A DNA stretch of 10,622 bases from a virus, in UHGV virus genome UHGV-0118722. One strand, written 5' to 3'. Made by a program: the position numbers and the translations under genes. Of this stretch, positions 4,936-5,301 are shown in pieces. The notes below the pieces were generated by a model. The model did not search any database. It saw only the letters and a list, made by a program, of their open reading frames with translations, and was not told the DNA's origin. Position 1 is the first letter of the stretch; the number at the start of each line of letters is the position of its first letter.

Positions 4936-5301
4936 TTATGCTGCCTCTTTAATGTTGGCGGCTATCCATGCCGCCGTGTGCTGTTTAACCTGGTCCAGGT
5001 CGATGTATGTGCCAACATATTGACTCAAATCCTGCAAGGTACCGATAAATGCATCGGTGCTCTGATCGACGAATTTATCAGCCAGGAAATCAGCAACCAG
5101 TTTTGGCACACCATCATGTTCCGAAGGTTGTTTTTCCTCGCCACTACCACCGCCGGACGCGCCGTACCCCATCTGTTGCATGATCTGGTCAATTTCATCG
5201 CTGATATCCAGCAACTCCATGCCACTCGCGGTCGCCGCTTTGGACATCAGAGCATCCAACTTATCGCTGAGATCCATTAACTCAATAGCTGATAGTGTCA
5301 T
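4936..5301 (-). CDS. ddrA: Small acidic 121-aa protein, DdrA-like by position and size, with an internal tandem repeat
   Basis: The ATG (5299-5301) overlaps the upstream gene's TGA (5298-5300) as ATGA. A G-rich ribosome-binding site lies upstream. Residues 7-19 ELMDLSDKLDALM and 29-41 ELLDISDEIDQIM form a tandem repeat, followed by a Gly/Ser linker GASGGGSGEE. Confidence 0.7.
   Translation of the reverse strand: MTLSAIELMDLSDKLDALMSKAATASGMELLDISDEIDQIMQQMGYGASGGGSGEEKQPSEHDGVPKLVADFLADKFVDQSTDAFIGTLQDLSQYVGTYIDLDQVKQHTAAWIAANIKEAA

Follow-up and report, generated by a model that had tools for sequence, protein, structure and literature searches.

UHGV virus genome UHGV-0118722, analysed here over a stretch of 10,622 nucleotides (nt; referred to as the window), belongs to a P1-like phage or plasmid and raises the question of what an internal repeat does in a small acidic protein of the dar operon. 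The first-pass annotation of the window, made from the sequence alone, had called this protein DdrA-like, had seen in its repeat two acidic amphipathic helices on a flexible linker, and had suggested a bivalent adaptor or a chaperone, for instance one bringing Dar proteins into the procapsid. The 601 bases around the open reading frame (ORF) match P1, P7 and related records at 96.7-99.3% identity, and in these records the same ORF is annotated as ddrA. The predicted product shares 97% identity with proteins named ddrA, differs at two residues from the reference P1 DdrA of equal length, and matched the DdrA-like family phrog_1855 at E=9.8e-58 (residues 1-120 on profile positions 1-114); a Pfam search of DdrA returned no family. 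Judged by these sequence matches, the product is DdrA of P1-like phages, a known protein of a known system. We consider it probable that the repeat forms a single helix-turn-helix module by which DdrA docks onto the C-terminal tail of DarA, and that DdrA contacts this tail in one form or another we regard as very likely.

The internal repeat of DdrA

The first-pass annotation had quoted a translation of 121 amino acids with repeats at residues 7-19 (ELMDLSDKLDALM) and 29-41 (ELLDISDEIDQIM), all of which were found as quoted, and had marked nucleotides 5179-5286, corresponding to DdrA residues 6-41. The best ungapped self-alignment was longer, pairing residues 2-21 with 24-43 at an offset of 22, with 9 of 20 residues identical and a BLOSUM62 score of 54. 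This score was reached by none of 5000 shuffles of the whole protein (mean 24.3, maximum 50) and by none of 5000 shuffles restricted to the N-terminal 44 residues (maximum 43). Both stretches are short and of biased composition, and according to Tandem Repeats Finder the DNA contains no tandem array, as might be expected if two low-complexity acidic and hydrophobic stretches resembled each other by chance; however, the shuffles and the retention of the register in all homologues refute this explanation, to which we assign a negligible probability.

In the DNA, a single 24-nt direct repeat (5197-5220 and 5263-5286) has 83% identity, and 26 of 39 nt are identical in the 13-codon core of the units. 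Resampling of synonymous codons gave a mean of 32.1 identical nt for the full units (32 of 60 observed, P=0.59) and 23.3 for the core (26 of 39 observed, P=0.14), and in six diverse genes 17 of 41 identical residue pairs used the same codon, with 17.5 expected. The similarity of the units at the DNA level, which had also been claimed, is thus real, but by codon resampling it is no greater than the protein similarity predicts. Since there is no excess of DNA identity, the duplication is not recent; as far as the sequences tell, it is ancient and predates the family.

A word-indexed search found only close relatives of DdrA. With an exhaustive profile search, 44 proteins were obtained at E<=0.001; another profile search contributed members from Pantoea and Enterobacter on contigs of 60-116 kb. 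Strong-looking profile matches to P0060, with saposin-like repeats, and to P0064 were rejected as false positives, both being long repetitive eukaryotic proteins. Retention of both units among orthologues, on which the first-pass annotation had made its reading depend, was seen in all of about 45 full-length homologues, down to ~27% identity, and the unit-to-unit score was significant individually in each of 30 homologues (z 2.7-6.1). No form with one or three units occurred among these ~45 homologues and a set of 99 loci compiled from genomes, metagenomes and viral contigs.

Conservation of DdrA among close relatives is highest in the repeat and lowest in the linker. A Gly/Ser-rich linker and an acidic C-terminal part had been described after the repeat and both are present in this protein, the C-terminal part having a net charge of -4 and the whole of DdrA one of -14. 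Across homologues the linker ranges from ~15 to ~70 residues in length and outside P1 is mostly Pro/Glu-rich. Two homologues, P0053 (597 amino acids; locus L002, 8001-9794) and P0059 (379 amino acids), retain the two-unit N-terminus and the DdrA C-terminal domain, the linker being replaced by large unrelated inserts of roughly 250 to 450 residues. The DdrA profile matches P0053 at both ends, its gene occupies the ddrA position after a gene for a DarA of 921 amino acids, and a Pfam search of P0053 and P0059 found no family. These inserts show the N-terminal module and the C-terminal domain to be separable, and the two proteins could be natural cargo fusions.

The two units were found to vary together. 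Unit 1 had a mean score of 37.1 with unit 2 of its own protein and of 23.3 with unit 2 of other proteins, a difference reached in 0 of 20,000 permutations and holding without the close P1 relatives. The within-minus-between difference was 13.4 in register; it did not exceed 4.1 when the register was shifted by 1-4 residues, or 1.4 when helices of the C-terminal domain were used for comparison, and given this in-register specificity the co-variation of the units is not an effect of composition. Co-varying positions form the pairs 5/27, 8/30, 12/34, 13/35, 16/38 and 19/41, the pair 13/35 being D/D, E/E, Q/Q, K/K or R/R, and between them lie fixed residues specific to each unit (L3/A25, L11/I33, L15/I37 and L18/V40). 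Gene conversion between the units was rejected because the unit-specific residues in between are fixed and shared codons are not in excess, and the co-variation points to selection on an exposed face.

Contacts between units could also yield such co-variation if the hairpins of two DdrA molecules paired into a four-helix bundle and the co-varying positions reflected a homotypic interface. Helical hairpins often dimerise. The same charge in both units (D/D, K/K, R/R or E/E at 13/35) would, however, repel across an interface of this kind, and the changes of opposite sign in DarA described below would be left unexplained; we regard self-association as improbable.

In an AlphaFold2 monomer model based on a 31-sequence alignment (mean predicted local distance difference test score, pLDDT, 75), helices are predicted at residues 5-24 and 28-44 (pLDDT 86-88), residues 48-63 are predicted to be disordered (pLDDT below 50), and the C-terminal domain is predicted to be folded (pLDDT ~80) with helices at 67-73, 82-92 and 102-116. 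Modelled alone, DdrA would therefore consist of two amphipathic helices, a disordered linker and a folded C-terminal domain, much as the first-pass annotation had envisaged. Both units open with Ser-x-x-Glu (S4..E7 and S26..E29), a classic helix capping box. Of 30 homologues, 23 have Gly and four have Pro at position 27, and position 5 turns to Pro in the same lineages as position 27. The capping boxes and the Gly or Pro at position 27 argue for two separate helices with a three-residue turn. Two short predicted helices, a tight turn and a location at the protein terminus are features of a helix-turn-helix docking module, and the model of DdrA has all of them. Foldseek searches of both AlphaFold2 models gave no significant fold match in the PDB or in BFVD (none at E<=0.001), and a profile search of PDB sequences gave no match at E<=0.1.

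Charge co-variation between DdrA and the DarA tail

The ladder of aspartates at DdrA positions 10, 13, 16, 32, 35 and 38 is neutral or Lys/Arg in 15 of the 43 distinct variants, as in LEKLTLSQKL / LQKLALGQQI and IERVKLAKEL / LEKVRTVKEI. Of the two acidic amphipathic helices proposed at first, the predicted amphipathic helices stand, but acidity is no family trait.

Across 43 distinct DarA/DdrA pairs from the 99 loci, the charge of the DdrA ladder was inversely related to the charge of DarA residues 592, 595, 599 and 623 (Pearson r=-0.97), and the correlation persisted with one entry per residue pattern (r=-0.95, n=18; Table 1). For single DarA columns, correlation with the DdrA unit charge was r=-0.94 at R592, -0.79 at R595, -0.97 at R599, -0.78 at R623 and -0.83 at K634. 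The net charge of the DarA helix formed by residues 587-608 gave r=-0.94 (43 pairs), and the preceding DarA helix (helix A) gave r=-0.05. R599 was the most negative of 565 scored variable columns in full-length DarA, Hdf and DdrB. The charges of DdrA and DarA are graded, with -6 in DdrA accompanied by +3 to +4 in DarA, -3 by +1, -2 by +2, 0 by 0 to -1, and +3 to +4 by -1 to -3. Where DdrA is acidic, DarA position 623 holds R, Q or N; where DdrA is of intermediate, neutral or basic type, it holds D or N.

Table 1 Residues at the DdrA ladder and at the corresponding DarA positions in 43 distinct pairs from 99 loci
DdrA 10, 13, 16, 32, 35, 38	DarA 592, 595, 599, 623
DDDDD[DE] or DDDEDE	RRR[RQN]
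DDSTEA	KIKD
EGGDQV	RTRQ
Q[AG][NS]SIN	GLQN
TQGAQI	NIQD
KKS[TAS]KV	SLQD
RRN[TG]RN	DLED
GRRNKR	DLED
KKARKT	TLED

With regard to other partners, no column in Hdf or DdrB came near those of the DarA tail in charge compensation, save isolated ones among only 6-8 loci, and the whole-protein charge of Hdf did not track the DdrA type. The partner indicated by the sequence data is the C-terminal tail of DarA, with no signal for DdrB. Homology of the DdrA N-terminus and the DarA tail was considered and rejected (hhalign probability 0.3%). A basic-type DarA tail used as query in viral contigs gave no matches, and the P1-type tail returned only copies that were 97-100% identical. One further DarA residue, D627 (window 5337-5339), moves in the same direction as the DdrA charge (r=+0.79): partners of acidic DdrA have Asp there, and those of basic DdrA have Gly, Asn, Ser or Ala. 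A lysine of DdrA, K14 for instance, might lie opposite this residue.

A proposed docking module in the P1 head

According to the reading favoured here, a single amphipathic helix of ~20 residues would have been duplicated in the distant past and its copies joined by a three-residue turn, and the resulting N-terminal helix-turn-helix of DdrA would dock onto the C-terminal helical tail of DarA, which is positioned together with Hdf on the inside of the capsid wall. The core of the docking bundle would be made of conserved Leu/Ile/Met positions, and the exposed DdrA ladder, all Asp in P1, would face a DarA ladder of opposite charge (R592, R595 and R599, plus R623). On the disordered linker, the conserved DdrA C-terminal domain would be free to extend inward, and this domain would hold the later Dar proteins, DdrB and then Ulx and DarB. 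What we infer in this reading is that the two proteins touch, how the bundle is arranged and what the C-terminal domain does.

DdrA is a head protein of the P1 virion, detected by mass spectrometry with two unique peptides and 27.2% coverage (PMC9024508 Table 1). As far as Piya 2017 is cited in PMC12810830, packaging begins with Hdf and DarA and continues with DdrA, DdrB, DarB and Ulx, and without Hdf or DarA the other Dar proteins stay out of the head. The P1 capsid holds 55 DarA-Hdf pairs at penton-hexon junctions; DarA is present in ~100 copies per virion, only 55 of which are ordered on the capsid. The capsid map does not resolve DarA residues 383-639 (the C-terminal 257 residues) and contains unassigned density beside DarA, close to its penton-binding and helical domains (PMC12810830). 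Deletion of ddrA has been described as a disruption of the antirestriction system, with loss of protection against EcoA, EcoB and EcoK and a change in plating from ~1e-1, 1e-3 and 1e-2 to ~1e-3, 1e-4 and 1e-4 to 1e-5, respectively (PMC9024508 supplement), a loss to be expected if an assembly link were missing. The role of adaptor that the first-pass annotation had suggested fits the published packaging order and deletion genetics; two independent acidic motifs are not supported, and no chaperone activity is indicated.

A truly bivalent adaptor would bind a separate partner with each unit, for example two DarA tails, and in this way tie the DarA/Hdf layer together or connect DarA with another protein. 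The units keep the same exposed residues in each lineage and both track the same DarA helix, as two equivalent sites would, and the published copy numbers, with DarA in excess of the copies ordered on the capsid, could accommodate such an arrangement. However, the three predicted non-helical residues between the helices would leave little freedom for independent arms, no variant with one or three units was seen although independent motifs usually vary in number, and fixed unit-specific residues (L3/A25, L15/I37 and L18/V40) show that the units are not interchangeable. We therefore consider two separate binding sites unlikely and prefer one docking module over two independent arms, because only three non-helical residues lie between the units and both units co-vary with the same DarA helix.

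DdrA could instead act directly on restriction, its acidic helices mimicking DNA as in Ocr and ArdA and blocking the type I enzyme EcoA after ejection. Such an effector would suit the net charge of -14, the regular spacing of Asp, the overall negative net charge in all homologues examined and the listing of DdrA as an 'antagonist of EcoA endonuclease' (PMC9024508 Table 1). DdrA resembles Ocr and ArdA in being small, very acidic and directed against type I restriction; unlike in these proteins, the acidic residues of its repeat are not conserved. In 15 of 43 distinct variants the Asp ladder gives way to neutral residues or Lys/Arg, with compensation in DarA, and this would be unexpected of a DNA mimic. 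Searches with DdrA found no family in Pfam, no PDB sequence at E<=0.1 and no known mimic of similar fold. The deletion also lowers plating on EcoB and EcoK, as an assembly defect would (PMC9024508 supplement). Direct DNA mimicry as the explanation of the repeat appears to us quite improbable, a little less so than self-association.

The repeat might also be a cleavable capsid-targeting signal as in phage T4 internal proteins, directing DdrA into the prohead and then being removed by the prohead protease. Its N-terminal location is compatible with this, and P1 offers precedents in the N-terminal 30-residue targeting sequence of DarB and the loss of the DarA N-terminus (PMC9024508, PMC12810830). 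If the published 27.2% coverage comes from two fully tryptic peptides, however, only combinations including residues 1-14 or 1-21 fit, and by this arithmetic on the published coverage, rather than on the peptide list, the N-terminal repeat is probably retained in the virion. Nor is the repeat similar to the N-termini of DarB, DdrB or Ulx, and the P1 proteome study, which sought a shared targeting signal, found no consensus among Dar N-termini (PMC9024508). A cleaved signal is accordingly among the least likely of these explanations. Leu-Ser does occur at positions 3-5 in DdrA (MTLSA), DdrB (MSLSD), Ulx (MATLSD) and DarB (MNKLSM), with start sites at 5301 and 4923 of the window for DdrA and DdrB and at 5436 and 12237 of locus L001 for Ulx and DarB; as a common N-terminal signal it was rejected as probably due to chance, not being kept in the N-termini of three DdrB homologues.

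That the charge pattern reflects contact of DdrA with DarA rather than plain linkage of their genes is argued by the opposite sign in every class, the graded intermediates and the involvement of several positions on one helix face on each side. A number of points weigh against the docking reading. The sequences for the DarA tail and the DdrA N-terminus together span ~330 contiguous bases and are inherited or recombined as one block, so that clade-specific features would associate even without contact, and it is only the opposite sign and the graded intermediates that argue for contact over such linkage. The permutation and correlation statistics ignore relatedness, and independent charge switches may be as few as ~3-5. 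A neighbour-joining tree of the DdrA C-terminal domain, weak on account of the short sequences, has the basic types scattered among acidic ones, which suggests several switches or module exchange. The monomer model fits a hairpin and a kinked long helix alike, and some Foldseek local matches (36-42 columns, 0.5-1.2 Å root-mean-square deviation) suit a helix that is almost uninterrupted. Why a single DarA helix with three Arg would require two DdrA helices is not obvious, and DdrA, given its listing as an EcoA antagonist in PMC9024508, may have an additional direct effector role.

The scaffolding protein of phage P22 carries a C-terminal helix-turn-helix coat-binding domain that is basic and docks on coat protein largely by complementary charges. 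The module predicted for DdrA would likewise be a short two-helix element at one end of an internal head protein with a capsid-associated partner, but it is N-terminal, arose by internal duplication, has a charge whose sign depends on the lineage, and has DarA rather than coat protein as its indicated partner; homology to the P22 domain was not seen among PDB sequences (no match at E<=0.1) or by Foldseek (no match at E<=0.001). With capsid-targeting segments of the T4 type the DdrA module would share an N-terminal position and the determination of head incorporation; unlike these, it has no shared sequence, is apparently retained in the virion and is twice the length needed for a simple tag. 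A comparison from the same system is the parallel alpha-helix bundle of DarA and Hdf in the P1 capsid, in which helices of two Dar proteins are paired by opposite charges (PMC12810830), whereas the DdrA contact would use the DarA C-terminal tail that is not resolved there.

The ddrA locus and its bearing on P1-like heads

The genes for the LydC-like holin, hdf, darA, ddrA, ddrB and the hxr-like ORF follow one another in this order on the minus strand, in agreement with the annotated P1 map (Table 2), and both Pfam and this map bear out the earlier placement of DdrA in the dar operon beside proteins of 639 and 995 amino acids, which are DarA and DdrB.

Table 2 Positions of the dar region genes and of the DdrA and DarA segments in the window
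Feature	Position	Strand	Basis
LydC-like holin	7992-8273	minus	ORF, P1 map
hdf, 203 amino acids	7219-7830	minus	Pfam DarA_N at 1.1e-21; P1 annotation
darA, 639 amino acids	5298-7217	minus	Pfam DarA_N at 1.4e-42, DarA_C at 3.5e-16
DarA residues 587-608 (DMAEIRNARGNVREAIAALQAA), C-terminal helix with R592 (5442-5444), R595 (5433-5435) and R599 (5421-5423); proposed docking surface	5394-5459	minus	Translation, charge correlation
DarA residues 609-639, last DarA helix, with R623 (5349-5351) and K634 also tracking DdrA charge type	5301-5393	minus	Charge correlation
ATGA overlap of darA stop codon and ddrA start codon, sequence GGCATGACA	5298-5301	minus	Sequence
ddrA coding sequence, 121 amino acids plus stop	4936-5301	minus	ORF list, DNA identity, phrog_1855 match
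Repeat unit 1, residues 2-21 (TLSAIELMDLSDKLDALMSK); S4-x-x-E7 capping box; Asp ladder D10, D13, D16	5239-5298	minus	Self-alignment, shuffles, predicted helix 5-24
Repeat unit 2, residues 24-43 (TASGMELLDISDEIDQIMQQ); S26-x-x-E29 capping box; Asp ladder D32, D35, D38; G27 at turn	5173-5232	minus	Self-alignment, shuffles, predicted helix 28-44
Flexible linker, residues 45-64 (GYGASGGGSGEEKQPSEHDG)	5110-5169	minus	Residues 48-63 pLDDT below 50; variable across homologues
Conserved C-terminal domain, residues 65-121, W112 invariant	4939-5109	minus	Homologue alignment, predicted helices
ddrB, 995 amino acids	1936-4923	minus	Pfam ddrB-ParB at 5.2e-39
hxr-like ORF	1638-1946	minus	P1 map

The order hdf-darA-ddrA, with ddrA beginning at the darA stop, was found at every locus examined, distant loci included; among the 43 distinct pairs the darA/ddrA junction is an overlap of 1 or 4 nt in 40 and a gap of 2 nt in three. 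ddrB usually, but not always, comes after ddrA at these loci: in L101 (4193-5668) the gene 3' of ddrA encodes a Fic-domain protein and not DdrB, in L012 (10434-10805) a Peptidase_M15 gene is inserted ahead of ddrB, and in L003 (5324-5800) the next gene after ddrA lies on the opposite strand. Two database proteins, P0044 (290 amino acids) and P0090 (218 amino acids), run from the DarA C-terminus directly into DdrA; rather than real fusions, they are most likely the product of a frameshift or an assembly error where the stop and start codons overlap.

Elsewhere in the window, only ~160 nt separate the start of hdf from the LydC-like holin gene (7830-7992). An 851-nt query (7600-8450) aligned in two pieces to 1504 nt of P1 records, and the element in the window therefore lacks the ~650 bp that hold lydB and lydA (holin and antagonist) in P1. 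An insertion sequence ~93% identical to IS903 (as annotated in phage HK022) occupies about 9990-10622. It begins at ~9990, at the 3' end of an Sv'-like tail-fibre ORF (9009-10004), and its transposase ORF (10050-10619) continues up to the end of the window. This element appears to interrupt the variable segment of the tail fibre. IS1, with insA/insB ORFs, was found at 829-1372, in the part of the map where reference P1 also has its IS1.

The internal repeat, its co-variation and an interface with the DarA tail are not mentioned in PMC9024508, PMC12810830 or PMC12707154 (Piya et al. 2017, PMC6011833, lay outside that comparison), and the repeat, the in-register co-variation and the charge compensation in DarA seem to be new. 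The scope is narrow, being one step in one phage family with a contact that we infer, but for this step of the fixed order in which the six Dar proteins are recruited into the P1 head a proposal can be made at the level of residues, and charge-swapped versions of DarA and DdrA already exist in nature. More tentatively, and as a possibility we rate below even odds by a good way, the DarA tail and the DdrA hairpin may dock by a charge code whose versions (Arg/Asp, neutral and Glu/Lys) have drifted apart until they no longer fit one another, the pair acting as an address label for which DdrA, with its attachments, enters which P1-like capsid; the inserts of P0053 and P0059 would then be cargo on the label. 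The modular layout of DdrA, with a proposed docking hairpin, an insertion-tolerant linker and a C-terminal domain, is relevant to P1 as a protein-delivery vehicle, and if the address-label reading is true the 46-residue module could serve to package selected proteins in P1 heads and so deliver them to bacteria.

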